Shown: positions 1-38,782 of the stretch, piece after piece
Numbering within the stretch: the first letter of the stretch is position 1
Layout: each line of letters opens with the position of its first letter
Virus record (IMG/VR): IMGVR_UViG_3300031134_000639
DNA length: 64,000 bases
Reading direction: 5' to 3' (one strand)
Origin: a virus
Lineage: Duplodnaviria > Heunggongvirae > Uroviricota > Caudoviricetes
The notes under the pieces: model-generated
The model's input: only the letters and a program-made list of their open reading frames with translations
The model's database searches: none
What the model was told of the DNA's origin: nothing
Translations under genes and position numbers: made by a program

Positions 1-240
1 GGCCACCATTCAATGCTACGGTTTGGTACGGTGATGAATTTACGATCTTCAGGGTAGTCAAACTCGTCAGGGTAAGCAAGACCATTAGCATTACCAATTC
101 CACCGTCTTTCTCATGCGCTTGAACATTAACTGCCCCGATGTGGAAGTCTGCCCCACGTAACTCCTGGCCCCAGCGATCAAACTGTGGCACTTCTACGTT
201 TAAGACGCCATATTTTGTTGGCACGATAACATAAGTCATT
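1..240 (-). CDS. Family-A paralog (unknown function), 5'-partial in window; N-terminus MTYVIVPTKYGVLNVE...DGGIGNANG...RSIEWW
   Basis: Reverse-strand translation from ATG at 240 matches the N-terminal signature of the downstream paralog family (PTKYG..., DGG..., ...W.Y). ORF runs off the window start. Confidence 0.55.
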
Positions 241-309
241 TAGATTTCCCTAATCAGATAGCGGTTGTAGTATAGCGATTTGTTTCATTTTTTGCTGTTG
301 CAGACCTGT

Positions 310-879
310 TTAATACAGTTTCACTTCAGCAAAAGAGTTATACGACGGTGTATACTTTGTGCGTTGACGTTCAGGATACAGGAAAGAATATTTCTCTGTG
401 AACTCTTTCCCGTAAGCTTCAGAAGCTTTGGTAATTTCTTCTTCAAGTGTTTTGAGGTGCCTTATCTTCCTAATGCGGACCTGTCTCTCTTGGAACGCTT
501 CGGTAACAAGGGAGGCATCATCAGGTACTCCAGCAATTCCACTGAGGTATGCCTCTAAAACAGCTTCATCAAACTCCTGTGCTTCCACAGAATATGTTAA
601 AGACAACACAGCATGACCCTTTTTTCCATCAGTTCTCGTAGTTGCTCTCACAGGGAAGTTGTTAGCTGCCTGAGCATTACGCAGAATTATGCCACGATAA
701 ATCCACCACTCTACTGAGCGACCTTCAGTGGTGATGTATGTTCGGCCATCCGACAAGGATAAACCTCCGTCGCTTTTACGTGCCTGAACCCGCAAGAAAG
801 GTTTAGGTTCATTACCTATCTTCTCATACATCTCTATGTTCAGGATGCCATATTTTGTTGGCACGGCTACATAGGTCAT
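310..879 (-). CDS. Family-A paralog, hypothetical ~190 aa
   Basis: ORF 310..957 trimmed to the internal Met (MTYVAVPTKYGILN) at 879, which is 2 nt from the stop of the upstream paralog (881). Motifs DGGLSLSDGRTYIT and FPVRA. Confidence 0.6.
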   Translation of the reverse strand: MTYVAVPTKYGILNIEMYEKIGNEPKPFLRVQARKSDGGLSLSDGRTYITTEGRSVEWWIYRGIILRNAQAANNFPVRATTRTDGKKGHAVLSLTYSVEAQEFDEAVLEAYLSGIAGVPDDASLVTEAFQERQVRIRKIRHLKTLEEEITKASEAYGKEFTEKYSFLYPERQRTKYTPSYNSFAEVKLY

Positions 880-880
880 A

Positions 881-1498
881 TTAGTGTCCAATCTGAACTG
901 CGATGGGAAAAGCCTGTGAAGAATGGGTGCCGTATTTAGGATATAGCTCCTGCTCACGCTCGCGGTTTTTCTTGGTTAGCTCATTCTGTTCCGCAGCAAT
1001 TTCTGATTCAAGCTGCTTGAGCTTGCGTGCATGGACCATCAGCTTCCGATAAGCGTAATGTGCATCCTGGATAAGCTGGGTGTCTTCCTGATCTACGTTA
1101 AGCTGACCAGTCAAGTAGAGGTCAAGGAAGATATCGCTGAAGAATGATGCAGCCTCAGAGTAGGTTGTCTCATAGTTGCCTAAAGCTTTAGCTGACTTTC
1201 TAGCTTTCACAGGGAAAGTTGTACCCGCCTGCTTCGTAGCCGAAATACCACGGTAAAGCTCCCAAGTGATTTGACGACCGGGAACTGTCACATAAGTTTT
1301 CCCGTCAGGGAGCGTGAGTCCGCCTTCCTCAGCTAGTACCTCAAAGTAGAAAGTAGTCCTGCGCCGCGTTGTCTGAAGCCCGTTCCTGGCAGAGCGCTCT
1401 TTCTCCCTGGCATCTACGGGGTGAGTGTAATCATAATACCGGACAACACCATAGGGGGTAGAGATTGTGGTAGTCAAAGCTTCAACGTCAAGATTCAT
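881..1498 (-). CDS. Family-A paralog, hypothetical 205 aa
   Basis: Motifs TPYGVVRYY, EEGGLTLPDGKTYVT, FPVKARK; alpha-helical C-terminal half. Confidence 0.6.
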   Translation of the reverse strand: MNLDVEALTTTISTPYGVVRYYDYTHPVDAREKERSARNGLQTTRRRTTFYFEVLAEEGGLTLPDGKTYVTVPGRQITWELYRGISATKQAGTTFPVKARKSAKALGNYETTYSEAASFFSDIFLDLYLTGQLNVDQEDTQLIQDAHYAYRKLMVHARKLKQLESEIAAEQNELTKKNREREQELYPKYGTHSSQAFPIAVQIGH

Positions 1499-1538
1499 AT
1501 CATAATTCTACCACAATTTGGCTCTAAAAGCTAGTCCC

Positions 1539-2099
1539 TCACATTTTAGGAAGCTCGAAATTACTCTCCTGATTACGCTTTTTGCCTAGTTTTTCTCCGT
1601 AAGTGTCAATATTAAGTTTCTCGTGTTCAACTTTGGCTTGCAAGGCGTACTCATTAGCGAGGTCCATTGCAGCACAAGCATCACGAACAAGAACACGATG
1701 CTCTGACCTTCTCCTTTGGGAGTCTTTGATTATCTCCAAATCATCTTCAAAGTCCATGGGGAACTCAAGGTTCAGATATGCTTCCAATATAGCGTCATCA
1801 AATAATTGAGCAATTTCAGACCAGAACGAGAGGTATGGGCCATAAGTCTTTGCTGTGGGCTTTTTCCTAGGCTTAAGAGAAAAGTTTTTGATACCTTCAA
1901 TTGGAGTCCAATGGATTTCACTTATGCTGTCACACACTCTACCGTCAGGAAAAGTTAAACCACCATCTTCACGGTCAACGGCAATAACTAACCAATTTTT
2001 AGCTGAGTCATCCCAGTGATCTTTAACAATCCTATACCGGATGACACCGTACCTGGTGACGAGTTTACTCATCTCTAGCTCTTCTTCGTAATATGACAT
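1539..2099 (-). CDS. Family-A paralog, hypothetical 186 aa
   Basis: TRYGVIRYR, EDGGLTFPDGRV; same architecture. Confidence 0.55.
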   Translation of the reverse strand: MSYYEEELEMSKLVTRYGVIRYRIVKDHWDDSAKNWLVIAVDREDGGLTFPDGRVCDSISEIHWTPIEGIKNFSLKPRKKPTAKTYGPYLSFWSEIAQLFDDAILEAYLNLEFPMDFEDDLEIIKDSQRRRSEHRVLVRDACAAMDLANEYALQAKVEHEKLNIDTYGEKLGKKRNQESNFELPKM

Positions 2100-2779
2100 T
2101 AGTATCTAAGCCATTCCCTTCCATAATCAATGTTTGTGTCAAATTGTGAGTCTCTAATGTAAGGGCCTTTTTTACTTCGATGAGGATACAGAACAGAATA
2201 CTCTTCATCTAGCTCAGCATCAGTCTGCTTCTTGCCAGCAAGGACCTCTTTTCGGAGAGCTTCCAGTTGACGGACTTTACGGAAATGCTCCCAAGTTTTC
2301 TCATGGGATTTGATAACCAAGTCCACGTCTTCTCCACCTGAGCCAACTGTTTTGAGGTATGAGTTCAGGAGGATACCATCAAGCTCTTCCGCTTCCTCAG
2401 AGAAGTTGTCCACGAGTCGGCTCAACTTCTTGCTTCCAGGCTCAGCACAGCGAACAGCGAACGAATCACGGTTACCACTACGCTCAAAAGCGTTGTAAAC
2501 AAACCATCTTAAAGGCTTACCTGTGTCAGTGAAAAGTGTTCTACCGTCAGCTAGGGTGATGCCACCATCTGCTTTTGAGAGGTAGATGTACAACATGAGG
2601 TCATGCTGGTTCTGTTCATCTTTTGTTACTACTGTACGTCCAGGCTGGAACTGTTTAGTCTTCTTCCTGTAGTAAGGTTGCTTATCCAAAGGTGGCTCCA
2701 AAGTCAGCCTGAATGTACCGTTAACTGTTGACACAGCCGGGTATTTCGACAAATCAAATTCTACAGTAGCCATAGTCAC
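2099..2779 (-). CDS. Family-A paralog, hypothetical 226 aa
   Basis: ADGGITLADGRTLFT, FAVRCAEPGSKK; start overlaps stop of neighbour. Confidence 0.55.
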   Translation of the reverse strand: MTMATVEFDLSKYPAVSTVNGTFRLTLEPPLDKQPYYRKKTKQFQPGRTVVTKDEQNQHDLMLYIYLSKADGGITLADGRTLFTDTGKPLRWFVYNAFERSGNRDSFAVRCAEPGSKKLSRLVDNFSEEAEELDGILLNSYLKTVGSGGEDVDLVIKSHEKTWEHFRKVRQLEALRKEVLAGKKQTDAELDEEYSVLYPHRSKKGPYIRDSQFDTNIDYGREWLRY

Positions 2780-3378
2780 TGCCCTCCTGAAACTTTCATC
2801 TTAGGTACAACACTGGAGCCGACTTCGACCCCACGAATTTCTTTGAACTTCTGAGCAAAATTCCAGTTTTCCTCTGAAGAGAAATGCTGAATTTTGGTTT
2901 CAATATCTTTGGCCTCTCTGAGGGAAGCACGGAATACCTCGTAGCTGCTGTGTGCCCTAGTGATTAGCTCAGGGTAGGGAACTGTGAAGTCAAAACTCTG
3001 AGTCACAGCAAGGTCTAAAATAAGCTGACTAATGAAAGTAGCCTCCCAAGACCATGTGTGACAGTACTCGCCTTGTATGTCTGCACGGATAGCGAACTGG
3101 TCTTCAAATCCAGGAGAGTACTTAATGCCTCCAAGCATGTCCCAAGCAATGTCCTTCCCCGGAGGGGTAGCATAGGTTCTGCCATTCGGTAAAGTTAACC
3201 CACCATCTTTAGCAGCAGCAACAACATGGACTTTCATGTAAGACTCCTCAGCAAAACTAAGGTAGCTTGGTAGAAAGTCGTCAGGGTGGGTTCCCTGTAG
3301 AAAGAAGCGCAATGTGCCATAGGGAGTTACGATGGTGGGCAGGTCATCAATGTCTACCTTGTTTTTATTATAAGACAT
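2776..3378 (-). CDS. Family-A paralog, hypothetical 200 aa
   Basis: TPYGTLRFF, KDGGLTLPNGRTYAT, FAIRAD; 4-nt overlap with upstream gene. Confidence 0.55.
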   Translation of the reverse strand: MSYNKNKVDIDDLPTIVTPYGTLRFFLQGTHPDDFLPSYLSFAEESYMKVHVVAAAKDGGLTLPNGRTYATPPGKDIAWDMLGGIKYSPGFEDQFAIRADIQGEYCHTWSWEATFISQLILDLAVTQSFDFTVPYPELITRAHSSYEVFRASLREAKDIETKIQHFSSEENWNFAQKFKEIRGVEVGSSVVPKMKVSGGQ

Positions 3379-3380
3379 GT

Positions 3381-3983
3381 TTAACCTAACGAGACTGTTG
3401 GAACGGAGTAGGAAGGCATGAATGGGATATATCTGGCTGCACCAGGGTAGTTAGCTCGGATTTCTTCCAGAAGAGCAAGCCTTTCTTCACTACGGTTAGC
3501 AGCTTTCTGCTCAAGCTCTTTAGCTTCACGGCAAAGGTCACGTGCTGCCTCCACCGACTTGTGGGCTTTTTCTACCAGGTACTGGTCCTCGGGTGTAACC
3601 AACATGTCGCCATTGACGTAAGACTCAAGAAGAACATCAGAGATGATTTGTGCGTTCTCACTCCAACTTACCTCAAAGTTTGCAAGCTTCTTACTAGAAC
3701 CAATACGTGCTTTGACAGGGAAGTCACCTCCGGGGCTGTTCTCAATTGGAATACCACCGTAAACAGCCCATACGATAGAACGCTTAGGCGGGGTGATGTA
3801 AGTTTTACCGTCTGGAAGTGTTAGCCCACCATCATCAGGGCTGATGACAACCTCAAATGACAGAAATGTGTTAATATCTCTTTCGCTGTAGCCAAAAGTT
3901 TTAGGTAGTAGCCTTAGCATACCGTACTTCGTGGGTACAATAGGTAGAGTGCTGTAATCATAGTCTGTATAGTGGTTTCCCAT
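3381..3983 (-). CDS. Family-A paralog, hypothetical 200 aa
   Basis: VPTKYGMLRLL, DDGGLTLPDGKTYIT, FPVKAR. Confidence 0.6.
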   Translation of the reverse strand: MGNHYTDYDYSTLPIVPTKYGMLRLLPKTFGYSERDINTFLSFEVVISPDDGGLTLPDGKTYITPPKRSIVWAVYGGIPIENSPGGDFPVKARIGSSKKLANFEVSWSENAQIISDVLLESYVNGDMLVTPEDQYLVEKAHKSVEAARDLCREAKELEQKAANRSEERLALLEEIRANYPGAARYIPFMPSYSVPTVSLG

Positions 3984-4044
3984 TATTTCCTCGGGTTCTT
4001 CCTAGTAAAATGTATCTATATTATAACATGAAAACAGGCTTAAA

Positions 4045-4089
4045 GCAAGTGAGGCTTCCACCTAATCACTAGGTGGAAGCCTCACTTGC
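4045..4089. terminator. Perfect 20-bp stem hairpin (gcaagtgaggcttccaccta / taggtggaagcctcacttgc)
   Basis: Inverted repeat read directly in the sequence, between convergent or tandem minus-strand genes. Confidence 0.6.
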
Positions 4090-4101
4090 TAATGTTGCAG
4101 A

Positions 4102-4632
4102 TTAGCTCTTGTCAACTGAAATCCAGAAAGCGTTCTTTCCGCCACCAAAACCGGCTAGCCAGCTGCCCTTAGACTCATCACCGGTGAAGTTGATGTTCTT
4201 GCCATCCCACTTACCGTTCTCATCAAGGTTGACAGTGGCTTTCTTGCTACCGAACTGGACCGCTGCCTCATCATACTTCTGATTCTTGGAACGACCAACA
4301 CGGATCTTGTGACCGAACAGCTTAGCAAGTACACGAACCGAGTTGCTAGGCTCGCTGGATGAGGGAACGCTTGTATCACGCTCCTCAAAAGCTTTCTCCG
4401 CAGAGCTTCTAGCTGAAGCGTAGTTCTTCTTAGCTGTAGCAAGGTCATCCCACTTAACTGTGACAGACCAAGTACCACCGTCAGGAAGAGGAGTACTTGA
4501 AACCATTGAAAGCCCATTGCGGGAAATCTCATGGTCCCACTTAGGCGCGAAAGCGCTTGCAGTAGCTTTCTCACCTGCCGTGTTGTTAACAGGCTCAGCT
4601 GTCTCGCCAGTGTTTACGTTATTGTCAGTCAT
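4102..4632 (-). CDS. Family-B paralog, hypothetical 176 aa
   Basis: C-terminal segment LAKLFGHKIRVGRS...NLDENGKWDGKNINF aligns with the next ORF. Confidence 0.5.
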   Translation of the reverse strand: MTDNNVNTGETAEPVNNTAGEKATASAFAPKWDHEISRNGLSMVSSTPLPDGGTWSVTVKWDDLATAKKNYASARSSAEKAFEERDTSVPSSSEPSNSVRVLAKLFGHKIRVGRSKNQKYDEAAVQFGSKKATVNLDENGKWDGKNINFTGDESKGSWLAGFGGGKNAFWISVDKS

Positions 4633-4691
4633 TATTCTCCTAGATAAACTTAGTTACGATTATAGCATTGAAAAAGTAGAAATGCAAATTG

Positions 4692-5180
4692 TTAGTGCTT
4701 CTTATCCTGCTTCTTGCTTTTGGTAACACCCAGCCACAAGCTCTTCTTAGCAGAAGTAGCAAACAAGCTGGTCTTAGAAGTCTCAGGGTCACGCTTAGTG
4801 AAGTTGATGCTCTTACGGTCCCACTTGCCGTCCTCGTTGAGGTTCAGTGATGCTTCACGACCGCCCAGAGCAATCTTAGCTACCTTAGAGTCGGGTCCAC
4901 CGCTGGAGCGGCCCAAGCGAAGCTTGTAGCCGAAAAGCTCTACAACGTCTTTGACAGTAGAGCTTGAGTCCTCTGTCTCATCAAGCTTAGGGCCGATGAT
5001 CAGGTCTGCGCGCTCTTCAACACCGACTTTAGCCTGCTCTACCATCTTGTCAGCTGTTTTGCGGTCAGGCCAGCTCATGCTAACTGAATATTCACGACCT
5101 CCAGTGCTCACAGTTGAGGTAAGGGTCAAACCGTCATCACTGCGAACGTGATTCCACTTGTAGTCTGTGGTATCTGTCAT
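4692..5180 (-). CDS. Family-B paralog, hypothetical 162 aa
   Basis: VELFGYKLRLGRS...NLNEDGKWDRKSINF; paralog of 4102..4632. Confidence 0.5.
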   Translation of the reverse strand: MTDTTDYKWNHVRSDDGLTLTSTVSTGGREYSVSMSWPDRKTADKMVEQAKVGVEERADLIIGPKLDETEDSSSTVKDVVELFGYKLRLGRSSGGPDSKVAKIALGGREASLNLNEDGKWDRKSINFTKRDPETSKTSLFATSAKKSLWLGVTKSKKQDKKH

Positions 5181-5281
5181 CTTTATTCTCCAAAAATATT
5201 ATCGTACCCCTAGTATAGCATAACTAGGGGTAATTTGAAAGCTAAGTTGCAATCCGAAGGCAAAGTAGGTATACTGGTGGT

Positions 5282-5947
5282 ATGAACTCACGCGCAGACA
5301 ATGAGAAGGCTGTCCTGCATCTTTTCCTAAAGATGGATAAGCCTGAGCTTTCTGTGTCTGAATTGTCTTTACCAACAGCGTATCTGAAGGCGATGTATGC
5401 AGAGAGTTTCACTACGGAAAAAGTTTTAGAGTTCTTTGAGGAGGCATTCTCTAAACTAAATGATTCTTGCTTGTCTGAGTTCGGGGCTAAGCTTAGTTCT
5501 AACTTCAATGACGACGAAGTTCTGAAAGTACTGGCAGAGTTTGCTGAGACGGAGGACAAGAGTGAATACCCTCTGAACACCGAAGCATCAGTTTTTCAGG
5601 TAGAAGTTGAAGATGTTTGGCTCAAAGATGAAGGATGGCGTTACGAGCAGGCCTTGTCTACAGTCAATCTTTCTAACGGCTATAAGATCACTGAGACAGC
5701 TAGAAAAATCTATGCTCTACCCTATTTTTATTCTGGTAATGAATATGCACATTTTGCAGACGCTAGTGTCACTTTTGTTAGTATGCAGGCATTAACAGTT
5801 TGTATCCGCTCAGTTCTTTATATGCTGACACAGCAGGTTGATCAGGAGTCTAAACCCGAAAAGCTTCAGCAAATATATCTTGACACGCAACAGCATCACA
5901 TTAGTGCCCTAAGAAAGCTGTTCAGTCTCGCAGCGAAGCTAAGTTAA
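5282..5947 (+). CDS. Hypothetical protein 221 aa
   Basis: Long ORF on the opposite strand to its flanking genes; no recognisable motifs. Confidence 0.45.
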   Translation: MNSRADNEKAVLHLFLKMDKPELSVSELSLPTAYLKAMYAESFTTEKVLEFFEEAFSKLNDSCLSEFGAKLSSNFNDDEVLKVLAEFAETEDKSEYPLNTEASVFQVEVEDVWLKDEGWRYEQALSTVNLSNGYKITETARKIYALPYFYSGNEYAHFADASVTFVSMQALTVCIRSVLYMLTQQVDQESKPEKLQQIYLDTQQHHISALRKLFSLAAKLS

Positions 5948-5953
5948 CATACT

Positions 5954-6565
5954 TCACTCATCAAAAGCGATGCGAGCATAGTTTGCATCAGAATAGTGAA
6001 ACGGTGTGCTGTAATCGTATCCTACGGCATTTTTGTTGACATAGTTGTTAAGGTACTCTTCATCTAAAGCATCAAACTCAGCTTTGGTGGCAGCGCGAAC
6101 TTTCTCGGCTTCAACTTTCAGCTGACGTACTCTTTCAAGGTATGATCGTCTAGCTTCGTGTACTCTGAACTCAAAGTTAACATCGTATGGTGGCACACCC
6201 GGTAAACGGTTTGCAATATACTCACCAAAAATCAGGTCATGTACTTCTTGGGCTTCTATAGAGAAAGTCTCGATATAGGACCCAAAGCCTCTTCCTGATT
6301 CTTTTCTAGGCCTGAGAGGTAAGCTGCTTCCAGTTTTGTTCTCTAAACGAACATTTCTTGCGCTGTGCCAACGCATGCAACGGTTTTTTGTGGTGAAATA
6401 AGTTAGCCCATTGTTTAATGTAATACCACCGTCTTCTTCCAAAGCTACAATCATCAAGTATGCGCTCTCTAAGTTACTCCTGTAGATCTCTTTAAAGCGG
6501 AACATGCCTTTGGGTGTCGGCAGAAGCTTATAGTCTGCGTACTGTGGGTCAATGGTAGCTGTCAT
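5954..6565 (-). CDS. Family-A paralog, hypothetical 203 aa
   Basis: LPTPKGMFRF, EDGGITLNNGLTYFT, LPLRPRK. Confidence 0.55.
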   Translation of the reverse strand: MTATIDPQYADYKLLPTPKGMFRFKEIYRSNLESAYLMIVALEEDGGITLNNGLTYFTTKNRCMRWHSARNVRLENKTGSSLPLRPRKESGRGFGSYIETFSIEAQEVHDLIFGEYIANRLPGVPPYDVNFEFRVHEARRSYLERVRQLKVEAEKVRAATKAEFDALDEEYLNNYVNKNAVGYDYSTPFHYSDANYARIAFDE

Positions 6566-6737
6566 AAGTCTATTATATCACAGAACAGCAGAATCTTGAG
6601 CGTAGTGCCCGCTAGACTAGTCTGAGAAGCCTCAGGACGGCCTAGGAGCGGAGATATCCTGGTTCTTAAGCGCCTAAGTGTGCTAAGCTGTTGAGAGCTT
6701 ACAGAGCCGCACACGGCGTTATATAAGAGAGAAGAGA

Positions 6738-7355
6738 ATGGTCCAGTTCGGAGATACTAAAGTGTTCATGGAGACACTTAAAGTTATTCTCTGGCATGAG
6801 AATGACTATTCTACTTTAGATGCCCTCAAAACGTTACCTTCCGACTATGTATACTCTATGCTCCAGGACAAAGTAACTAATGAGAAAATTGAAGCAGCCA
6901 TTGTCAAACACAATAACAACTTGATTGACCTATATCTCAATACTCCCGCAGATGACCCAACTTTTGTTGAGATAGCTCGTATCCTTGAATCTCCTTTGGA
7001 CGAAAGTAAAGAAACACGTCGACTCTCAATACGAGAGATGGGGAAAACGCTGAGTGAGCAGATAAGAAATTCGTTAAACTTAGGAGGGGTTAATACAAAC
7101 GACTTGGAGTATAATGACCCTGACGGATTTTATCTCATTTCAATCTCTAATAGGAACAGTCAGCGAAGAGACATATCAGATGACATGATGATCCATTTGA
7201 CCAACCAAACGTATGCTTTTCGCCAGGGTCAAAGATACCTAAAAAATCAGGACCCACTTATGCTCTTTGACTTTTCCGACACGGAGCATAAGATGCATTT
7301 AGATAACTTTTTCCTCATACATAATCTAATGGCAGCGGGTACTAAAAATGTATGA
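6738..7355 (+). CDS. Hypothetical protein 205 aa
   Basis: ORF with 8-nt overlap to the next gene; no recognisable domain. Confidence 0.45.
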   Translation: MVQFGDTKVFMETLKVILWHENDYSTLDALKTLPSDYVYSMLQDKVTNEKIEAAIVKHNNNLIDLYLNTPADDPTFVEIARILESPLDESKETRRLSIREMGKTLSEQIRNSLNLGGVNTNDLEYNDPDGFYLISISNRNSQRRDISDDMMIHLTNQTYAFRQGQRYLKNQDPLMLFDFSDTEHKMHLDNFFLIHNLMAAGTKNV

Positions 7356-7950
7356 GCCTCATCAAGACATTCCCCAGCCCTCACACGAGGAGTTCTTCCC
7401 ACGCCTAATCAGCGACTTTGAAACATATGAGAGCATGGGAACCGAGTTATCTGAACAGTACGCTGAGATGGTATCAGCTGGACTACCTATGTCGTTTGTC
7501 CTTAACCTGCTGTTACCTAAGCCAAAACTTGCAGGCATGTTCGTGGAGCAGTTCACATATATGATGGAACAATGCTCAAAAAATCTGAAGGAAGGCACGC
7601 CCCACGATACTCAGAAGAATTTTAAGTTGCACAATTTTATGGAGGTATCTTCTGCCTATATCCCTAGGAACTTTCCCTATGAAGCAGCGTTAAGAAACCG
7701 CATGCCCAGAACAAACTTTGAGGGCCTGTTAGACAGTAGCTCTTTCTTCATGAGAGAAGCTGGCGTGCGTCTACCTAATTACAAAAGGTTTATCCTAGAC
7801 CTATTTTCTCACGTCACCAATATTGTTGAGATGAAGGATCATCCTTTGACAGTAGATGATGCATATGCTTGGAACTTCATGAATAAAGAGTACACACAGT
7901 TTCGGCATTTACATTCATTCCTAAAAAGTCAGCCGCATGTTTCTAAGTAA
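7348..7950 (+). CDS. Hypothetical protein 200 aa
   Basis: ORF; no recognisable domain. Confidence 0.45.
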   Translation: MYEPHQDIPQPSHEEFFPRLISDFETYESMGTELSEQYAEMVSAGLPMSFVLNLLLPKPKLAGMFVEQFTYMMEQCSKNLKEGTPHDTQKNFKLHNFMEVSSAYIPRNFPYEAALRNRMPRTNFEGLLDSSSFFMREAGVRLPNYKRFILDLFSHVTNIVEMKDHPLTVDDAYAWNFMNKEYTQFRHLHSFLKSQPHVSK

Positions 7951-7980
7951 TTGACTCAGCTGTAAGCACTTAACCTAAGT

Positions 7981-8018
7981 AGGTGTGGCTCCCGGCCAAA
8001 AAACCGGGAGCCACACCT
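7981..8018. terminator. Hairpin aggtgtggctcccgg-ccaaaaaa-ccgggagccacacct
   Basis: Perfect 15-bp inverted repeat between convergent genes. Confidence 0.6.
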
Positions 8019-8020
8019 AC

Positions 8021-8605
8021 TTACACCGAATTCGTTCTGATGAAGTCTGAAATCCGGGTTACATCACTTCTGCCTAAGCCAAACTTCTCGCATGGTCTAA
8101 CTACCAGATGCGGGGCCGTCATGGAAGACACATGCTCTTCTGCCCACAAGTTAACTGCTTCATCATCAACCCACACGAAAGCTGTGTCCGGGTTGCTTCT
8201 AGCAAAGTTCAGCACCCACTGGAGCTTCTGGTCAGAACGATACGTTTGAATATCCTCAACAGGCAGGAAAGGAGTTGGGGTCCAACTAATCCAACCGTCT
8301 GAGTTTATCCCAAGGAGTTCATCTACCTTTTCGGTTTCGTTAGTCCAAGTGCTAAGCCAATGCCAGACGTAAGCTGTTTCGTCTTTAAGCTTCATGAGTG
8401 TTTCCACAAGTTCATGAGACCAAGAAATATCTTGCCACTTGTAGTCGTTTTTACCCCAGCCACCTGCCACATTGCTGTTGAGCGGGACAGATGCATGTCG
8501 CAGCTGACCGAAAGAGTCAAAGTTTTTGCTGACTTCATTAGGGGAAGTAGAATACCAATTGATGACTCCATCAAAGTCCATGATAACAAAAACTTGTCTA
8601 ACCAT
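8021..8605 (-). CDS. HAD-like hydrolase/phosphatase (paralog of 20527..21060)
   Basis: N-terminal VIMDFDGVINW (DxDG motif I-like), later WLSTWTNE and VWVDDEA. Start set at the internal Met, which is preceded by AGGAAGGAGAG. Confidence 0.45.
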   Translation of the reverse strand: MVRQVFVIMDFDGVINWYSTSPNEVSKNFDSFGQLRHASVPLNSNVAGGWGKNDYKWQDISWSHELVETLMKLKDETAYVWHWLSTWTNETEKVDELLGINSDGWISWTPTPFLPVEDIQTYRSDQKLQWVLNFARSNPDTAFVWVDDEAVNLWAEEHVSSMTAPHLVVRPCEKFGLGRSDVTRISDFIRTNSV

Positions 8606-8764
8606 AGCTGGTCTCTCCTTCCTGTAAAGTAGCTGTCCATAGAGTATAGCATAGTGCTCTAGACGCTGCAAAAAACTCTCTAAAGCACTAGTTGACCTTA
8701 AACAAATTGTAAGCTACACTAGAAACGTAACTATTTGCGTAACACCATCTTAAAGAGGTAAAAA

Positions 8765-9415
8765 ATGACTAAGGCACCCGCTTTCGAACTGTCCCCTGAG
8801 TTCGTTGCTGTCCAGGCTGAGCTTGACGCGCTTGATGAGCAGCGACGGGCTATTCAGGAGCGCTACAACGTTTTCTTCCAGGAGCGTAAGGACATTAAGG
8901 ACCTCTGGTGGGAGGAGAACATCTCCGAGTTTGACCTTTTCGACTCGGAGGACTTCCGTGAGCTTGGTATTGAAGCTTGGAACGGTGGCTCTGGTGGGTC
9001 ACAGGTGATTCCTCTGTTCATTGATGAGACCCTGAAGAGCGAGGGAGTCAACCGGTTCCTCTACCGTGAAGGTCATGTTGGGCGCTCTGACAAGTCCAAG
9101 GACTATCTTTTCTCTCTGAACTCTTTCACTCTTTCACTTGAAGGCGAGATTTCAGAGGATGAGTACACAAAGCTTGCTAGTGTCCTCACGCGAATCCAGT
9201 CTGCCGCTGGTCAGTGGAAGAACGACTACTCCTTCCGTGTCAACGGTATCATCCGCGAAGACGATGACCACGGTGGTTATGCTCCTTATGTGCTGTACGT
9301 GAACAAGAAGGGTTCGTACGTGCAGTCTGAGGCTTACGGTCGTCCGTATACCTTCATTAAGCAGGGCAACCTTGTGGATGTTCTCAAGGAGATCCGTTCC
9401 TGCTCTGGCGATTAA
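8765..9415 (+). CDS. Hypothetical protein 216 aa
   Basis: ORF with RBS AAAGAGGT upstream; GC3-rich codon usage. Confidence 0.5.
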   Translation: MTKAPAFELSPEFVAVQAELDALDEQRRAIQERYNVFFQERKDIKDLWWEENISEFDLFDSEDFRELGIEAWNGGSGGSQVIPLFIDETLKSEGVNRFLYREGHVGRSDKSKDYLFSLNSFTLSLEGEISEDEYTKLASVLTRIQSAAGQWKNDYSFRVNGIIREDDDHGGYAPYVLYVNKKGSYVQSEAYGRPYTFIKQGNLVDVLKEIRSCSGD

Positions 9416-9423
9416 CATGTAGA

Positions 9424-9470
9424 AACGAGTGTGGGCCAACCAGAACTAATCTGGTTGGCCCACACTCGTT
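9424..9470. terminator. Hairpin aacgagtgtgggccaaccag-aactaat-ctggttggcccacactcgtt followed by tt
   Basis: 20-bp perfect inverted repeat between convergent genes. Confidence 0.65.
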
Positions 9471-9476
9471 TTCAGC

Positions 9477-9887
9477 TTAATTTACGCGTTTCTCTTCTTC
9501 GTCTTCCTCATCGCCGGGAATGTAAATGTCGTCAACGCGAACATTTACTTCAGTGATTTCCATTCCGACAAGTTCAGTGACAGCTTCAATAGCTGCGGAA
9601 CGTACTTTCTCGGACACAACATGAAGCTGTGTAGGGTATTCTGCTACGATAACAATGTCAGCAGCAACCTGACGTTCACCCACCTCAACACTAACACCCT
9701 GGCTCAAGTTTTTCTGGTTGACAGCTGAGCGTATACCACCGATAACACGTGATGCGTTCCCGCCTAGGTCATGTACACCAGGTACCTCACGGACAGCGAT
9801 TCCAATTAGTTTGCTGATAACTGCATCATCAATGACAGTCTTTCCGGATGTAGCAGAGTCTGTAATGTTCTTTGTGTCTGTAGCCAT
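9477..9887 (-). CDS. Asp23/Gls24-family (alkaline-shock-like) protein, ~136 aa
   Basis: Sequence MATDTKN...VIDDAVISKLIGIAVREVPGV...acidic tail resembles the Asp23 family. Start set at the internal Met preceded by AGGAGAAGGAG. Confidence 0.6.
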   Translation of the reverse strand: MATDTKNITDSATSGKTVIDDAVISKLIGIAVREVPGVHDLGGNASRVIGGIRSAVNQKNLSQGVSVEVGERQVAADIVIVAEYPTQLHVVSEKVRSAAIEAVTELVGMEITEVNVRVDDIYIPGDEEDEEEKRVN

Positions 9888-9982
9888 GTTGACCACTCCT
9901 TCTCCTAGAATGATTATTGTTTGTTGGTTATGTGTATTAGACGTAACCAACAAACAAAATGTCACGGTGTTTTTCAAAAAAA

Positions 9983-10011
9983 TTGACAAACCAGTAAGAA
10001 AAGCATATAAT
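9983..10011 (+). promoter_or_regulatory. Consensus sigma70-type promoter TTGACA-N17-TATAAT
   Basis: TTGACA at 9983..9988, 17-nt spacer, TATAAT at 10006..10011, 7 nt before an RBS and the ATG at 10018. Confidence 0.6.
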
Positions 10012-10017
10012 GAGGGC

Positions 10018-10431
10018 ATGAACTTAGACTCCGATGTGCTCGCAGGGTACGACCCGGTTGAACTCAAAGTAGGCGTTGTGCGCAGCGTTACTGTAGTAGA
10101 CAACGTCTTAGGGATAACTGTGCGAGAAGACAACGGAAAGTTCTTCTTGGACTTCAAAACAGATGAAAGCCTGGCTAAACAAAACAGTCTTTACCCAAAA
10201 GAGAACGATAACGAACTTTTCCTTATAACTCTGTATGCTACTGTTTTCTGTGAGAACAAACCTCTCACAGCTGATTCGTGGGCTGAACGAAAACTTCTGA
10301 AGTTCTGGGAGAAAAACTACCCTAGAGGATTTTTCTATTACTTTACTGAACCCGATGAAGCCTTCTTGGTTGACGACAAAGTTTACACTGTAGAAGTCGC
10401 AATGAAAAGAGTTGGAGAATTTGATGGTTAA
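10018..10431 (+). CDS. Hypothetical protein ~137 aa
   Basis: Start moved to the Met directly downstream of the consensus promoter and RBS; the longer ORF version overlaps the opposite-strand Asp23 gene. Confidence 0.5.
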   Translation: MNLDSDVLAGYDPVELKVGVVRSVTVVDNVLGITVREDNGKFFLDFKTDESLAKQNSLYPKENDNELFLITLYATVFCENKPLTADSWAERKLLKFWEKNYPRGFFYYFTEPDEAFLVDDKVYTVEVAMKRVGEFDG

Positions 10432-11041
10432 CATGAGAACCCCAAACGAAGTTCATTACGCCCTTTTTCAGCATACCGCTGATTACATTCAGGATGAGAA
10501 AGCCCTCACAATGCTAAGTGAATTAGATAGCACACCTGCGCTATACCGTGAACTTATGATTAAACCGTTTCTACGGCCTGTTTTTGTTGACAAGATGTTG
10601 GCCCATAAGTTGGATGCTATCATGGACGCATTATACTCTGACAAAGAGAACGTGGAGCTTTCTACGAAGTTTGCTAACTTTCTGGAAGATTTAGGGAACA
10701 TTAGATTCCAAAGCAGCAAACACAACTTCTATAACGGTATCAGAAGAGTCTATGAAGGTGACCTGAATAAAAGGGAACTCAGCAAGAGGATAGTCAACAC
10801 TTTTGTTGGGCACGATCTCATCCAAGATAATGCCTCCCCAGGGTTAGCAAAGCATGGCACAGCAGCTATCTCTACTGGCCTTGAATTTGTTGCAGGGATG
10901 GCAGTGCTTACAGCCTACGATGTGGTGCCGGACTACTATCTTACACCCACCCATCTTATGGACAAAACAGGTGTCCAGCTTCTGTGGGATTTCTATTTCC
11001 GACTACATTCCATGTATCGCAAAGCAACGTTTACGCCTTAA
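10412..11041 (+). CDS. Hypothetical protein 209 aa
   Basis: ORF overlapping the upstream stop; no recognisable domain. Confidence 0.45.
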   Translation: MENLMVNMRTPNEVHYALFQHTADYIQDEKALTMLSELDSTPALYRELMIKPFLRPVFVDKMLAHKLDAIMDALYSDKENVELSTKFANFLEDLGNIRFQSSKHNFYNGIRRVYEGDLNKRELSKRIVNTFVGHDLIQDNASPGLAKHGTAAISTGLEFVAGMAVLTAYDVVPDYYLTPTHLMDKTGVQLLWDFYFRLHSMYRKATFTP

Positions 11042-11088
11042 AATGGCTGTGGCCTTGAACTATTTCAGTTCAAGGCCACAGCCATTTT
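11041..11088. terminator. Perfect 20-bp stem hairpin (aaatggctgtggccttgaac / gttcaaggccacagccattt)
   Basis: Inverted repeat between convergent genes. Confidence 0.65.
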
Positions 11089-11091
11089 AAG

Positions 11092-11751
11092 CTAGAAAGC
11101 TAGTCTTATTCTTTCACCCCAATTAGATGAGATAGGTCTGTGAGGTGAGATTCCATAGTAGCCCCCACCTACAGTTTTCATCATAGCATCAGAATACATC
11201 TGTTCATGCTCAGCTGTAAGAAGACCAGCTTCATCACGGAGAGGAGAAAGAGTGTTCTCTATCTCAGCTTTCAAATCACGGATACTCTGCAACGTTTTAA
11301 GCACCAGGTCATGTACCTTGGTCTCATACTGTACATCGTAAGGCTGGACTACGGTGAAAGCCCCGCTGATGTAAGTATCAAACACAGCCTGCTCAACTTC
11401 GCCTGCGAGTTCACTCCAGGTCTCAAGAGAGGCCTCAAAGCTTTTGGCGTTCTTGCGAGCTTTAACAGGGAAGCTGCGTCCTTTAACGTTCTCTAACTCA
11501 AGTCCTACACTTCTCCAAGAAAAGTATGACTCAGGTGCGGTGAAATAAGTTTTTCCGTCACTGAGCTTAACTCCACCGTCTTCCTTAAGGATGGCTACAT
11601 GGAAGTGTCGCAGGCCATTAGGCGTTGAAAAGTAGTCACGGATACGAAGTACCCCAATGGGGCTAGGAACAATCTGGGCATCTTCCAGGAACTTCTGGAA
11701 CATCTCATTTTTTATTCTAGCAGAAGTGCTGATGTAAGGTGTTTGAGTCAT
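11092..11751 (-). CDS. Family-A paralog, hypothetical 219 aa
   Basis: EDGGVKLSDGKTYFT, FPVKARKNAKSFE. Confidence 0.6.
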   Translation of the reverse strand: MTQTPYISTSARIKNEMFQKFLEDAQIVPSPIGVLRIRDYFSTPNGLRHFHVAILKEDGGVKLSDGKTYFTAPESYFSWRSVGLELENVKGRSFPVKARKNAKSFEASLETWSELAGEVEQAVFDTYISGAFTVVQPYDVQYETKVHDLVLKTLQSIRDLKAEIENTLSPLRDEAGLLTAEHEQMYSDAMMKTVGGGYYGISPHRPISSNWGERIRLAF

Positions 11752-11778
11752 AACTCCTATTTTATCATACTTTTGAGG

Positions 11779-12396
11779 TCAGTGCCAGCTGACTTTCATT
11801 GTAATAGCAGGTTGGAGAGGTCTCGTCCAGTAAGCCCAACCCTGACCGTTATTAACCGGGAACATTCTTTCGTGCTCCTCATACAACTCAGTTGCTTTAA
11901 GCGTTAAAGCCTCAACAGCTTTTGTCATCTCGTTCTTCATCTGAAGGAACTTTTGGTTCTTTTCAACCTGTAGATCATGCACTTTTGTTTCATACACAAC
12001 ATCCCAAGGGAGGATAGAAGACATGCCTCTACTGATGTAAGCTTCAAAGATTGCTTTTTCAACTTCCTGACCCTGTTCAGACCATACTGCAAGAGCAGGT
12101 CCAAGGCTTTTACCAGAGCCTTTTCTTGCTTTCAGAGGAAAAGTATCTCCCTTAGTGTTTTCAATTATGATACCACTGCTTGTCCAACTGAAGAACCTAT
12201 CAGACGTGGTAACATATGTTTTACCATCACTCAGTTTCAATCCGCCGTCTTCAGGCAAGACAGCAACGTAGAACATGATCAAGCCATTTTCCATCATAGA
12301 CGGAATCTTACGGACACGGATGGCTCCAACGGAAGTAGGAACGAGTTCACTGTTTTCCATGAAATCAGTGAAGTATCCAGATGGGGAGTTTGTCAT
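11779..12396 (-). CDS. Family-A paralog, hypothetical ~205 aa
   Basis: EDGGLKLSDGKTYVT, FPLKARKGSGKS; start trimmed to an internal Met. Confidence 0.55.
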   Translation of the reverse strand: MTNSPSGYFTDFMENSELVPTSVGAIRVRKIPSMMENGLIMFYVAVLPEDGGLKLSDGKTYVTTSDRFFSWTSSGIIIENTKGDTFPLKARKGSGKSLGPALAVWSEQGQEVEKAIFEAYISRGMSSILPWDVVYETKVHDLQVEKNQKFLQMKNEMTKAVEALTLKATELYEEHERMFPVNNGQGWAYWTRPLQPAITMKVSWH

Positions 12397-12479
12397 ACTA
12401 GCATTATACCATAGTCGCAGTCCGACTGTCCAGCCCAAATTGTGCACAATGACATATTCAAGTCTCCCGAAACAACTGC

Positions 12480-13127
12480 TTAAAAAGCTAGTCTAATATT
12501 GTTTGCAAAGCCTGAGTGGATTGGGCGTTCAGCTGGCGTGTGGTACTTACCTGGTTGAAGCACAGGATAATTCGCTTCATGCTCCTCTGATAACTGTGAT
12601 GCTTCGTCTGCCAGGCTTTTGACGCTTGCTTCCACCTCAGCTTTGAAATAGCGAAGTGTGTTTACTTTCTTGATCACGAGATCATGAACTTTTGTTTCGT
12701 AGGCTACGTCAAAAGGCTGGCAGAAACTCACGCTGCCGCTGATGTAGCTATCAAAAATGGCTTGCTCCACCTCGCTTGCAAGAGTGCTCCAAGAGTCCAA
12801 AGAAGACTCAAAACCTTTTGTTCCCTTACGCGCTTTCACAGGAAAATTGCGTCCCTTAGCATTGTCCAGGTTGAGTCCGCTGCTCGACCATGAAAACATT
12901 GCTTCCGGCCCAGTAAAGTAAGTTTTTCCGTCACTGAGTTTTAAACCGCCATCTTCAACGAGGATGGCGACACTAAAACTGCGGCAACCATCGGTAGTAG
13001 AGTAATTGTCAGCAACTCGTATAACACCAACTGGGGTTGGGACAATTTCAGCTTCAGTCATGAACCGTCTGAAAGACTCTGACTTCCATGAGCCGAGTGA
13101 ACTAAAGGAAGGAGTATTAGAAGTCAT
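12480..13127 (-). CDS. Family-A paralog, hypothetical ~215 aa
   Basis: EDGGLKLSDGKTYFT, FPVKARKGTKGFE; close paralog of 11092..11751. Confidence 0.6.
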   Translation of the reverse strand: MTSNTPSFSSLGSWKSESFRRFMTEAEIVPTPVGVIRVADNYSTTDGCRSFSVAILVEDGGLKLSDGKTYFTGPEAMFSWSSSGLNLDNAKGRNFPVKARKGTKGFESSLDSWSTLASEVEQAIFDSYISGSVSFCQPFDVAYETKVHDLVIKKVNTLRYFKAEVEASVKSLADEASQLSEEHEANYPVLQPGKYHTPAERPIHSGFANNIRLAF

Positions 13128-13212
13128 AGCTATATGATACCAGAAAAAGGTTACCAAAGCAAGCTAACAACTGTTAGAACACAACACTAAGCAAGCATGC
13201 TACAATAGTCAA

Positions 13213-13806
13213 ATGGATTCCTACAGAGACCAAGAAGTGTACTCAACGCTATATGAGCACATCTATGGCGTGAAGCCTACCAGTGTAGATGACGAAAGTA
13301 TCATAGAACTAAGAAAACAAGAAGTACCTGATACGTACATTCGGGGTCTCACTGAAGTAAAGATTGACGGTCCTAAGCTAACCAGGATGCTTAACTCCAA
13401 AATTCGTACCGTGCTGGAGTACGCATGGAAGAACCCAACCGGTGAGCACTTTGATTCAGTAGTTAGCCTGCTTAAGAAGATAGATGAAACCAGAGATGTA
13501 CAAAGTGTATACTTGTTTGCGTATCTAATGAAGAACCTACAAGCAGAAAACATGAGTTACCATGATGGGATGACACAACAGGAGGTAGCTGACTATCTTA
13601 CCTCCATATTCTGGGAGCATTCAATCATTCGCGGCATGGTGGAGGCTTTGTTGGAGTTCCAGGTAACTATAAGGCTATCAAGGCATTTTCCAGCTTCAGA
13701 GCAGTATGACAAGCTTGGTAAATTAATGCCATCATGGACCAAATCTTGGGCGAACTATTTAGAGCTTCACCAGGTATACGAATCAATCAAACATACCTGC
13801 TCTTAA
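13213..13806 (+). CDS. Hypothetical protein 197 aa
   Basis: ORF only. Confidence 0.45.
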   Translation: MDSYRDQEVYSTLYEHIYGVKPTSVDDESIIELRKQEVPDTYIRGLTEVKIDGPKLTRMLNSKIRTVLEYAWKNPTGEHFDSVVSLLKKIDETRDVQSVYLFAYLMKNLQAENMSYHDGMTQQEVADYLTSIFWEHSIIRGMVEALLEFQVTIRLSRHFPASEQYDKLGKLMPSWTKSWANYLELHQVYESIKHTCS

Positions 13807-13814
13807 GTCTGTAT

Positions 13815-13860
13815 ATGTGGAGGAGGGTGACACACAATTGTGTGCCACCCTCCTCCACAT
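13815..13860. terminator. Hairpin atgtggaggagggtgacacac-aatt-gtgtgccaccctcctccacat
   Basis: ~20-bp inverted repeat between convergent genes. Confidence 0.65.
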
Positions 13861-13866
13861 AGTTGT

Positions 13867-14514
13867 TTAAGGCTTGACGAAAGTGTTCAAAGGGAAATCA
13901 TCCCGACCGCGCCATGCTGCGTTCTGGGTAACATGGTTAGCGCGAACATACTTCAGGACCTTCCAGGGGAAGTCATCATAGGCGATGGAGCCAGCGTCAC
14001 GGATAACGAACCCTTCTGAGGTCTCGCGGTCGTGAGAGCGACCCCAAACCTTAGTGGCCTCAGTGAAGTCTGTACCACGGTAAAGGACTGGCACCATGCT
14101 GAGTCCAAGCAGTTCGCACCACTCGGTTGCTTCATCCCACGGAAGAAGAACATCATCCTGCCAGATTCCGAACACCATGAAAACAGAGGGCATGTCATCG
14201 TAGCTGATTGCCTTGCGGGCGTACATGTTCTCACCAGAAATGCGCATGTTCGCTGGAATGTCCCAGCGAAGTTCTGACCACAGCTTTCGCATGGGAGCGT
14301 CCCACAGATTAGTGGTTGCATCCACAGAACGCCCATAACTGAATTCACGTCCAATTGTGTAGTTTGAGCCGTCCAATTTTTCTGTGACAATGAGTTCAAT
14401 ACCGCTCTGAAGGTAGGCGTGAGCCTCCGGGCTGCCCATCTTGTCATCTGAGGTCATCCCCAGGCTACCCTTCCAGTGACTGGTTCGGGGGTACTTCTTA
14501 CGCTGAGCATCCAT
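13867..14514 (-). CDS. ATP-dependent RNA ligase (minimal Rnl2/Rnl5-like nucleotidyltransferase), ~215 aa
   Basis: KYPRTSHW, motif I EKLDGSN, motif III FMVFGIW, motif IV EGFVIRD, motif V WKVLKYVRANH. Start at the internal Met, preceded by AAGGAGGTGA. Confidence 0.75.
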   Translation of the reverse strand: MDAQRKKYPRTSHWKGSLGMTSDDKMGSPEAHAYLQSGIELIVTEKLDGSNYTIGREFSYGRSVDATTNLWDAPMRKLWSELRWDIPANMRISGENMYARKAISYDDMPSVFMVFGIWQDDVLLPWDEATEWCELLGLSMVPVLYRGTDFTEATKVWGRSHDRETSEGFVIRDAGSIAYDDFPWKVLKYVRANHVTQNAAWRGRDDFPLNTFVKP

Positions 14515-14617
14515 TTGGCTCACCTCCTTAGTTGGCTGAGATTTTAGTTTATCACACAGTAAACGATGAAGCAAGCTCCGCCCTATTAAAACCTGCTGAA
14601 TGTGATACACTTGTCTC

Positions 14618-15109
14618 ATGAACAACTTCAATTTTGATTACCAAGTGTTCGTGGACGGCTCCTCCGGGTTCATAGCCTATTTGCCTATTTTAAGTCTGAT
14701 GATAGGTTTCGTCGCACTGCTATTTGGTGTAATTATGTTCTCAATGATCTCCAAGGCCTTACGTATCTTGTGTTTCTCTGTTTTTGTTGCCGCAGCAATC
14801 ACATCATGTTTTGGTTTCAGCTTTGATGCATCCGAAGAAAAACGGGCTGACGGTATCTATGCTTACAATGTTTCTAGTGTAAGCAATTGGGCTGAAAGCA
14901 ACTACGGTATTAGGATGCCACAAAGTGAAGTTGAGTATATGCTTGGTGTAAATGAGCCAGCTAGGACTCTTCTGAGGCCTCCTTCTCTAGACCCTGCTGA
15001 TGACGATGTTTTCTACTCAGCCTACGGTGTAGACAGTTCAGGTAATACAGTTGAAGTCACTTTAACAGCCATTGATGGAAACTTTAAGCTCGTTACTCTG
15101 AAGGACTAA
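14618..15109 (+). CDS. Membrane protein, family-C paralog, 163 aa
   Basis: Two N-terminal hydrophobic helices; C-terminal region aligns with 15159..15689. Confidence 0.5.
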   Translation: MNNFNFDYQVFVDGSSGFIAYLPILSLMIGFVALLFGVIMFSMISKALRILCFSVFVAAAITSCFGFSFDASEEKRADGIYAYNVSSVSNWAESNYGIRMPQSEVEYMLGVNEPARTLLRPPSLDPADDDVFYSAYGVDSSGNTVEVTLTAIDGNFKLVTLKD

Positions 15110-38731: not shown

Positions 38732-38760
38732 ACTAAGTTCACTCCTATCAGGTTTAAGAC

Positions 38761-38782
38761 AAAACCGATAGATATGAGTAAT
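38761..38782 (+). promoter_or_regulatory. Variant motif AAAACCGATAGATATGAGTAAT (CCGATAG...TAAT with 7-nt insertion)
   Basis: Upstream of ART paralog 4. Confidence 0.35.

Follow-up and report, generated by a model that had tools for sequence, protein, structure and literature searches.

Lineage-specific expansions of accessory genes are an established feature of jumbo phages, the roughly 35-copy Zn-ribbon family of Bacillus phage G being one example (Iyer et al., 2021, PMC7824862). Here, we describe an expanded family of small proteins encoded in the first 13 kb of a 64,000-nucleotide stretch of viral DNA (IMG/VR record IMGVR_UViG_3300031134_000639); "the window" below means this whole stretch. 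Like the described expansions, the family is made up of numerous tandem paralogs, much diverged, of a small protein which relatives possess once or not at all, and its copies stand in an accessory region where conflict-related genes abound. It differs from them in that it is unrelated to the families described there, has neither a Zn-ribbon nor any other recognisable domain, and occupies a fixed syntenic slot in which the copy number is graded (1, 3, 12-13).

A second comparison is with the gene sets that phages express early to take over their hosts, such as those of T4, which include the ADP-ribosyltransferases (ARTs) Alt, ModA and ModB, and the module of SPO1 (PMC7824862). There, as here, small orphan proteins with individual host-type promoters stand beside ARTs and nucleic-acid repair genes. 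Those sets, however, are made of many unrelated small genes, whereas here one family is present thirteen times, and its timing is read from promoter sequence only. What emerges is a well-documented new orphan family, not a new mechanism.

The family, its fold and its slot

An earlier note on this DNA, made from the letters alone, had described eleven paralogs on the minus strand of positions 1-13127. All eleven open reading frames (ORFs) are present at the coordinates that it gave (Table 1), except that the copy at the left edge starts with the ATG at 239, not at 240, its frame running past the edge of the window. A family hidden Markov model (HMM), run against all six-frame ORFs of the 64 kb, matched exactly these eleven and no others, with E values of 1e-44 to 1e-58 for the ten complete copies and 1e-12 for the partial one. 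The ten complete copies also form one cluster in all-vs-all BLASTP, and in an alignment of all eleven the identity to the first copy is 25-51%, with Gly, Gly-Gly, Gly and Trp columns invariant. To say, as the note did, that the family occupies most of the first 13 kb is to overstate its share, which is 6.4 of 13.1 kb (49%). Many of the genes do abut or overlap, the junctions being 1-nucleotide (nt) overlaps of the form TAATG, 4-nt overlaps of the form GTGA, and spacers of 1-2 nt.

The proteins, of 158-226 amino acids (aa), are predicted to be soluble, and have no signal peptide, membrane segment or other hydrophobic segment. Their isoelectric points (pI) run from 5.0 to 8.6 and their net charges from -8 to +2; as they are not strongly acidic, DNA mimicry was dropped as a candidate role. 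A BLAST match of the 11779 copy to 76-77 residues of a RadA-like gene, at 29-30% identity, was discounted as chance; its E values, 2e-5 to 3e-5, come from a database of 77 sequences.

That the family contains no known domain holds for Pfam, PHROGs, PADLOC, NCBIfam and PDB sequences alike. Up to 28 members, scanned singly against Pfam-A, PHROGs, NCBIfam and PADLOC, gave best E values of 0.016-0.07, and no library family was matched by more than one member. The family profile returned noise from PDB sequences (best E 0.022, to Sec4), and a scan of IMG/VR with the family pattern gave 12 pattern matches and no relatives. Deposited phages had no match to the 13 kb region, to any of three members or, by tblastn, to the profile consensus, even with E values of up to 10 allowed. 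An exhaustive HMMER search of 1.84 billion representative proteins found 27 matches. Of these, 15 are paralogs of this genome or their strain variants, and the remainder, of 158-214 aa, have the same architecture. All 27 map to a handful of related uncultivated contigs. As far as these searches reach, the family is confined to one small clade of uncultivated, huge-phage-like genomes.

Structural searches gave little more. Foldseek against BFVD returned one full-length viral match, A0A345M7K1 (188 aa; 201 columns, E 9e-4, probability 0.96), which is similar in size but reaches a TM-score of 0.28-0.29 and 12% identity. Identity as an RsfG-type anti-sigma factor, judged by structural or sequence similarity to RsfG (PDB 7qh3) and by pairing with a sigma-factor gene, is not supported. 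The family is new to every curated library searched, extremely rare, and without a confident structural relative.

The motifs on which the earlier note relied are real: TxYG with an invariant Gly, [ED]DGG[LI]xLxDGxTYxT, and FP[VL][KR]A[RK] in most copies. The Trp that it placed after the TY motif is invariant and lies 11 residues on; in the family alignment, WSExA opens helix 1. Invariant or near-invariant columns are mainly Gly and Trp, and the conserved columns as a whole are turn glycines, the core Trp, hydrophobic positions and, in the FPVK strand, a single basic residue that is well conserved. No candidate set of catalytic residues appears in the alignment. Conservation that falls mostly on Gly and Trp suggests that the proteins are probably not enzymes.

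The division into a beta-rich N-terminal part and a helical C-terminal part is borne out by two AlphaFold2 models. The first, of the 3381-3983 product (13 sequences), has a mean predicted local distance difference test score (pLDDT) of 82.5 and a predicted template-modelling score (pTM) of 0.75. The second, of the distant member P0016 (32 sequences; 23% identical to the first), has a pLDDT of 88.6 and a pTM of 0.81. Both predict the same topology: seven antiparallel beta strands in the first ~100 residues, a 15-residue helix from WSExA, a loop, and a helix of 43-45 residues. A short, strand-like C-terminal tail follows, modelled with lower confidence, with a conserved Pro and alternating hydrophobic and basic residues (…P…V-x-V-K-F/Y). 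The parts that vary between copies are the N-terminal tail, an insert between strands 2 and 3 (a few to ~30 residues), and the C-terminal part.

The array does continue past the left edge, as the earlier note had expected. ENA contig k141_624373 (ERZ27247443; 624,949 bp; locus L003) is 100% identical to window positions 1-13983, the window corresponding to about 478-542 kb of that contig, and it supplies the remainder of the 210-aa copy and then a divergent copy of 191 aa. The 3381-3983 product is encoded identically on contigs of 884,011 and 885,359 bp from other assemblies. In a 94%-identical strain (L001), an extra copy of 197 aa, not in L003, lies between the 210-aa and the 191-aa copies. 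The array thus holds 12 copies in this genome and 13 in the sister strain. This genome has its 13th member elsewhere: on the same contig, at a distance of ~120 kb, a divergent protein of 158 aa is encoded ~1.5 kb downstream of Thg1, from which two ORFs separate it. Any two of the 13 copies are 15-56% identical (median 23%). The family is therefore more diverged than the ARTs of the same region (19-67%, median 36%), to which the note had considered it equal in variability.

The same slot recurs in related loci. Its gene order is RNA ligase, HAD/PNKP phosphatase, family copies, deaminase, three small ORFs, a pilin-like protein, and an HSP90-like GHKL ATPase. Between the same anchors stand one copy in L005, three in each of L008, L009 and L014, and 12-13 here, and the variable zone between them grows from ~2 kb in L005 to ~15 kb here. 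In L010 to L013 there is a second slot, downstream of Thg1 at a distance of ~1.5-2 kb; in L004 it lies near Thg1, HIT and DUF4406 genes.

A neighbour-joining tree divides the family into three groups. One is the subfamily of the Thg1 slot. Another is a deaminase-adjacent subfamily that includes the last, 191-aa copy of the array, which pairs as reciprocal best match with the L008 copy nearest the deaminase. The third is an expanded clade made of the other eleven copies and three proteins from sample ERR13899815. Neighbours in the tree are also neighbours in the array, as with the 11092/11779/12480 trio, and with the 310 copy and the 210-aa and 197-aa copies. Adjacent copies that are each other's nearest kin are what tandem duplication predicts. 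With fewer copies in relatives, the tree and the gene order together describe a lineage-specific tandem expansion, in which the deaminase-adjacent copy is ancestral and the eleven others arose by duplication within the variable zone.

Gene starts, selection and turnover

The copies that lead a transcription unit (starts 1498, 6565, 11751, 12396 and 13127) have no Shine-Dalgarno sequence. Instead, the pattern TGnTAnnnT ends 6-7 nt before the ATG. Among ORFs of at least 100 aa this arrangement occurs 11 times in the window, against 0.0 times in 50 shuffles; the other sites are 13213, 14618, 15177, 16675, 18682 and 62218. The same TGnTAAAAT-N6-ATG stands at the family gene in L004 (10001), L005 (3981) and L008 (4925), and the pattern is found at eight sites in L010. 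Judged by its letters, this is the layout of leaderless mRNA made from extended -10 promoters. The copy that starts at 3983 differs, having a leader of ~36 nt and a GAGG site, and the genes within its run are coupled by overlaps.

So high a frequency of leaderless starts is characteristic of Actinobacteria and of certain other groups. It is a hint that the host may be actinobacterial or another Gram-positive bacterium, one whose polymerase and ribosomes handle leaderless transcripts. An extended -10 box, TGGTACAAT, also precedes the RadA/Sms gene (46896-48311), with a 21-nt leader and no ribosome-binding site; the gene is full-length (Zn-ribbon, RecA-like ATPase, Lon-like domain) and ~41% identical to bacterial RadA.

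Selection was estimated as the ratio of nonsynonymous to synonymous substitution rates (dN/dS) from strains L001, L002 and L016, which are 90-94% identical; L016 comes from the same sample as L001. Each copy has a positional ortholog in these strains. In all ten testable copies dN/dS is 0.07-0.15, and the neighbouring genes are the same (0.12 for the HAD gene). These ratios indicate that the copies are under purifying selection. Taken with the architecture of the starts, this means that the family genes are, by all signs in the sequence, real and in use.

Low ratios do not imply that the array is static. Against a background synonymous divergence (dS) between strains of ~0.2-0.3, three copies (5954, 11779 and 12480) have been replaced by diverged alleles, with dS of 0.45-1.24 and identities of 70-87% where other copies show ~95%. 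In L002, the plus-strand gene 5282-5947 and the minus-strand copy 5954-6565 have dS of ~1.2, and the divergent block consists of exactly these two convergent genes: identity in 200-nt windows is 68-78% over window positions ~5300-6600 and ~94% elsewhere. Exchange of the two as one cassette hints that they work together. In L016, the 11779 allele is 79.5% identical (dS 0.87, dN/dS 0.13), and the 12480 allele is 87% identical (dS 0.45, dN/dS 0.14); the neighbours of both have a dS of 0.24. Across the cases of exchanged alleles dN/dS is ~0.13-0.17.

Allele replacement at low dN/dS, together with the gain or loss of the 197-aa copy, points to an array that turns over through recombination and duplication, without any speeding-up of amino-acid substitution. 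Such turnover is compatible with selection that maintains diversity. The earlier suggestion of an arms-race family therefore survives in part. A copy number of 12 in one strain and 13 in another, and three replaced alleles, speak for it; dN/dS of 0.07-0.15, with a positional ortholog of every copy in the strains, speaks against it.

Table 1. Family copies and the putative promoters that precede them (window coordinates; dN/dS against strain orthologs).
Feature	Position	Strand	Details
Family copy, N-terminal 79 aa of a 210-aa protein	1..239	-	ATG at 239; HMM E 1e-12; complete at L003 13745-14377 (identical DNA)
Family copy, 189 aa, shortest, without N-terminal extension	310..879	-	HMM E 6.5e-54; dN/dS 0.08-0.13 vs L001/L002 ortholog
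Family copy, 205 aa	881..1498	-	HMM E 6.7e-58; dN/dS 0.09-0.10
Extended -10, leaderless type	1505..1513	-	TGGTAGAAT, 6 nt, ATG; candidate for the 881-1498 copy
Family copy, 186 aa	1539..2099	-	HMM E 1.5e-44; TAATG 1-nt overlap of start with upstream stop; dN/dS 0.08-0.09
Family copy, 226 aa from GTG (224 aa from ATG 2773), long strand 2-3 insert	2099..2779	-	HMM E 2.8e-46; dN/dS 0.07-0.08
Family copy, 200 aa	2776..3378	-	HMM E 4.2e-51; dN/dS 0.12-0.14
Family copy, 200 aa, heads long co-directional run, source of model 1	3381..3983	-	HMM E 2.1e-56; GAGG ribosome-binding site
Candidate promoter of the run from 3983 to the left edge	4020..4028	-	extended -10 TGTTATAAT, ~36 nt upstream of the 3983 start; consensus match only
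Solitary family copy, 203 aa, convergent with ORF 5282-5947 (+)	5954..6565	-	HMM E 2.8e-53
Extended -10, leaderless type	6572..6580	-	TGATATAAT, 6 nt, ATG; candidate for the 5954-6565 copy
Family copy, 219 aa, one of the youngest tandem trio	11092..11751	-	HMM E 2e-50; 56% identical to the 12480 copy
Extended -10, leaderless type	11759..11767	-	TGATAAAAT, 7 nt, ATG; candidate for the 11092-11751 copy
Family copy, 205 aa, start ATG 12396	11779..12396	-	HMM E 1.6e-52
Extended -10, leaderless type	12403..12411	-	TGGTATAAT, 6 nt, ATG; 11/12 match to sigma-70 consensus with TG; candidate for the 11779-12396 copy
Family copy, 215 aa, start ATG 13127, divergent from ORF 13213-13806 (+)	12480..13127	-	HMM E 1.2e-53
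Extended -10, leaderless type	13134..13142	-	TGGTATCAT, 6 nt, ATG; candidate for the 12480-13127 copy

The replicon and its other genes

The window and its flanks encode an RNA ligase, two HAD_SAK_2 proteins, PGDYG, a CCA-adding enzyme, DUF2637, NlpC/P60, SPFH/flotillin and NT5C. They also encode an ADP-ribosylglycohydrolase, 13 ARTs, RadA, NERD, ThyX, LigA, an FtsK-like ATPase, bPH-SHOCT, Asp23 and Thg1. The majority of the ORFs have no Pfam match, and no tRNA gene was found in the window. The nearest phage homologs of the RNA ligase all belong to huge phages, of 311-735 kb; LigA is only ~30% identical to bacterial LigA loci from GTDB genomes. Gene content and nearest homologs thus suggest a huge-phage-like replicon. 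If it is a phage, 885 kb would exceed the 735 kb of the uncultured phage records in the phage collection.

The genes for RNA repair and tRNA maintenance are dispersed. On the minus strand are the genes for two HAD_SAK_2 phosphatases (8021-8671 and 20527-21060), the Rnl-type RNA ligase (13867-14631) and the PGDYG protein (21114-21575), and on the plus strand is that for the CCA-adding enzyme (25939-27411); Thg1 is at the second locus (L010 7680-8468). A sister lineage adds a tyrosyl-tRNA synthetase (L008 12658-13866).

Two further observations concern the ARTs. The ADP-ribosylglycohydrolase (34766-35902, Pfam E 4e-43) lies directly upstream of an operon of eleven ART genes, and is a possible eraser for ART writers. 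Most ARTs (36004-46054 and 48324-49181) carry a Cys/His/Arg-rich N-terminal module of ~35 residues (MCRxKxxGGRRCPxHTDPxKxxxxNARRR), which is also present on the CCA-adding enzyme at 25939-27411 (HMM domain E 6e-8); the minus-strand ART at 18778-19686 has no such module. A module common to unrelated enzymes suggests a common function in targeting, packaging or nucleic-acid binding.

Small paralog sets without a Pfam match occur elsewhere. There are three pairs on the minus strand (4102-4632 and 4692-5180; 16091-16675 and 18104-18682; 51716-52636 and 52753-53640), and one three-copy family on the plus strand (57991-58890, 58921-59784 and 59807-60667). The first pair sits within the array described here, with its own promoters and ribosome-binding sites. 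A second interleaved family was considered for the plus-strand ORFs at 5282, 6738, 7348, 10412 and 13213 (~200 aa each) and rejected. These have in common only a loose N-terminal L-P-x-x-Y and 15-21% identity, and BLAST and iterative HMM searches with them return orthologs only.

Two genes at the far end of the slot form a conserved pair in all lineages (L003 17162-20603, L005 6025-9631, L008 8836-12519), and both are unusual for a phage. One encodes a pilin-like protein of 390-447 aa with a prepilin-type N-terminal cleavage and methylation signal, the other an HSP90/sacsin-like GHKL ATPase of 730-744 aa. A sister-lineage contig contains a mobile element, an IS607-type pair of a serine-recombinase/MerR gene and a TnpB/Cas12f-like gene (L012 17613-19629).

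Candidate functions

The reading that we prefer is that these are non-enzymatic proteins, made from host-type promoters, that bind host factors. We put its probability at about 40%. The conserved core of beta-hairpin, Trp and helix 1 would be a scaffold, and the paralog-specific tails, the insert between strands 2 and 3 and the C-terminal part would give each paralog a different target. The host-type promoters would drive proteins that attach to a group of related host factors, block them or divert them; these factors would be, most plausibly, given the neighbourhood, components of host defence or stress responses that damage RNA. Diversity would be kept by gene gain and loss and by swaps of whole alleles, not by rapid point substitution.

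We infer the binding function and the host targets from three things, namely the lack of catalytic residues, the places where the copies vary and the surroundings of the genes; early timing would follow from the type of promoter. The multiple RNA-repair enzymes of jumbo phages are considered a response to different host RNases (PMC7824862). Together with the position of both slots among RNA-repair enzymes, this suggests that the host pathways concerned may be RNA-damaging ones.

Several points weigh against this proposal. The neighbourhood amounts to two loci in one syntenic clade, and may therefore reflect inherited gene order, not function. Most copies are mildly acidic, which counts against direct general binding of RNA, and a fast arms race would lead one to expect a higher dN/dS than theirs. 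Genes outside the family, too, are preceded by extended -10 boxes, so that the boxes alone do not define an "early" class. Finally, no capsid, portal or terminase gene was seen in the ~100 kb examined of contigs of 625-885 kb, so that the phage nature of the replicon is itself something that we infer.

Another explanation is that the proteins are accessory subunits of phage RNA repair or tRNA maintenance. Here, each paralog would recruit or regulate the RNA ligase, HAD/PNKP, Thg1 or the CCA-adding enzyme for a particular damaged RNA, or each would inhibit a different host anticodon nuclease or RNase toxin. The family does stand beside RNA-repair enzymes, which are known to be multiple in jumbo phages (PMC7824862), in every lineage seen. 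HAD/PNKP is divergently adjacent and RNA ligase 2-4 kb off in L005, L008 and L009; in the window, a span of 14 kb takes in RNA ligase, two HAD_SAK_2, PGDYG and the CCA-adding enzyme; and a separate subfamily keeps company with Thg1 (L010 to L013) or Thg1 and HIT (L004). Within one syntenic clade, however, this adjacency too may simply be inherited. The proteins are, moreover, mostly acidic (pI 5-7) and have no known RNA-binding domain, and repair enzymes in one or two copies make an odd match for thirteen family members. We regard this explanation as unlikely.

The predicted fold raises another idea, that the proteins are TULIP-like carriers in which a curved sheet around a long helix forms a cavity for lipids of the host envelope or small hydrophobic molecules. 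In size (~190 aa) and in the order of its elements, a sheet that leads to a long C-terminal helix, the family resembles single TULIP domains as known from the structures of Der p 7 and OrfX; genes related to membranes (SPFH/flotillin, Asp23, DUF2637) are nearby. Yet there is no Pfam match, no TULIP member is among the PDB sequences that the family profile matched with E values of up to 10, and unrelated sheet-plus-helix proteins (p32/Mam33, RsfG, polo-box) score nearly as well. The resemblance of the models to TULIP domains (OrfX1, OrfX2, OrfX3 and P47 of Clostridium botulinum, the mite allergen Der p 7, insect takeout proteins, BPI-like proteins) is consistent in architecture but too weak to argue for homology, and this explanation must be held quite unlikely.

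The earlier note had proposed a link to the ARTs, perhaps as cognate partners. In its fullest form, the proteins would be adaptors that select targets, inhibitors or chaperones, roughly one for each ART paralog. The two families are the largest expansions of the region, with 13 copies of one and, of the other, 13 in the window and at least two beyond its left edge. The family array has ARTs to either side of it, and in L004 one ART-like gene (E 3e-9) is 3.7 kb from the single family copy. The genes, however, are never arranged as adjacent, co-oriented pairs, which is the rule for toxin-immunity and enzyme-adaptor pairs. The main ART array (36004-46054, plus strand) is ~23 kb from the family array (1-13127, minus strand), and the two never interleave gene by gene. 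Their starts differ as well, most ART genes being led by ribosome-binding sites in one tight operon, and the unit-leading family copies being leaderless. L005, L008 and L009, with 1-3 family copies, have no ART within the 13-16 kb viewed, and a surface conserved among paralogs would fit one common partner, not thirteen. Pairwise partnership is not supported, and is very unlikely to be the explanation, although a looser functional link may exist.

A bolder version of this link would make the family a new fold class of specificity modules for ARTs, each handing over a host protein or RNA or gating an ART, or, as a variant, the first TULIP-like carriers of a phage. It draws on the expansion of both families in one region, a distant relative with one of each less than 4 kb apart, and a fold without a confident relative. 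We hold it to be improbable; if it were true, one giant phage would be running a dozen separately addressed ADP-ribosylation reactions.

Giant phages such as phiKZ, 201phi2-1 and SPN3US have, from proteomics, paralogous families of head-internal proteins, and the proteins here might likewise be held inside the virion and ejected with the DNA, as are the inner-body or head proteins of phiKZ-like phages or the internal proteins of T4. The neighbouring expansion consists of ARTs, and T4 packages the ART Alt with its DNA (cited in PMC7824862). This is the least probable of the explanations, for the 64 kb window and the flanks examined contain no structural genes, no N-terminal propeptide or capsid-targeting signal is common to the copies, two of which begin at the conserved domain, and individual host-type promoters fit early rather than late expression.

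The binding of host factors is thus the reading to which we return, with the reservations given. Whichever reading is correct, expanded families are the most tractable entry to the blocks of orphan genes in giant phages, as selection has kept many diverged copies of them. This family offers a structure that is predicted with confidence and has no clear known relative, a copy number graded at one fixed slot, a conserved architecture of promoters, and signs of allele swapping between strains. Its targets, if found, would show why a near-megabase phage needs a dozen variants of one small protein, and whether these answer to defences that damage RNA or are linked to its ARTs.

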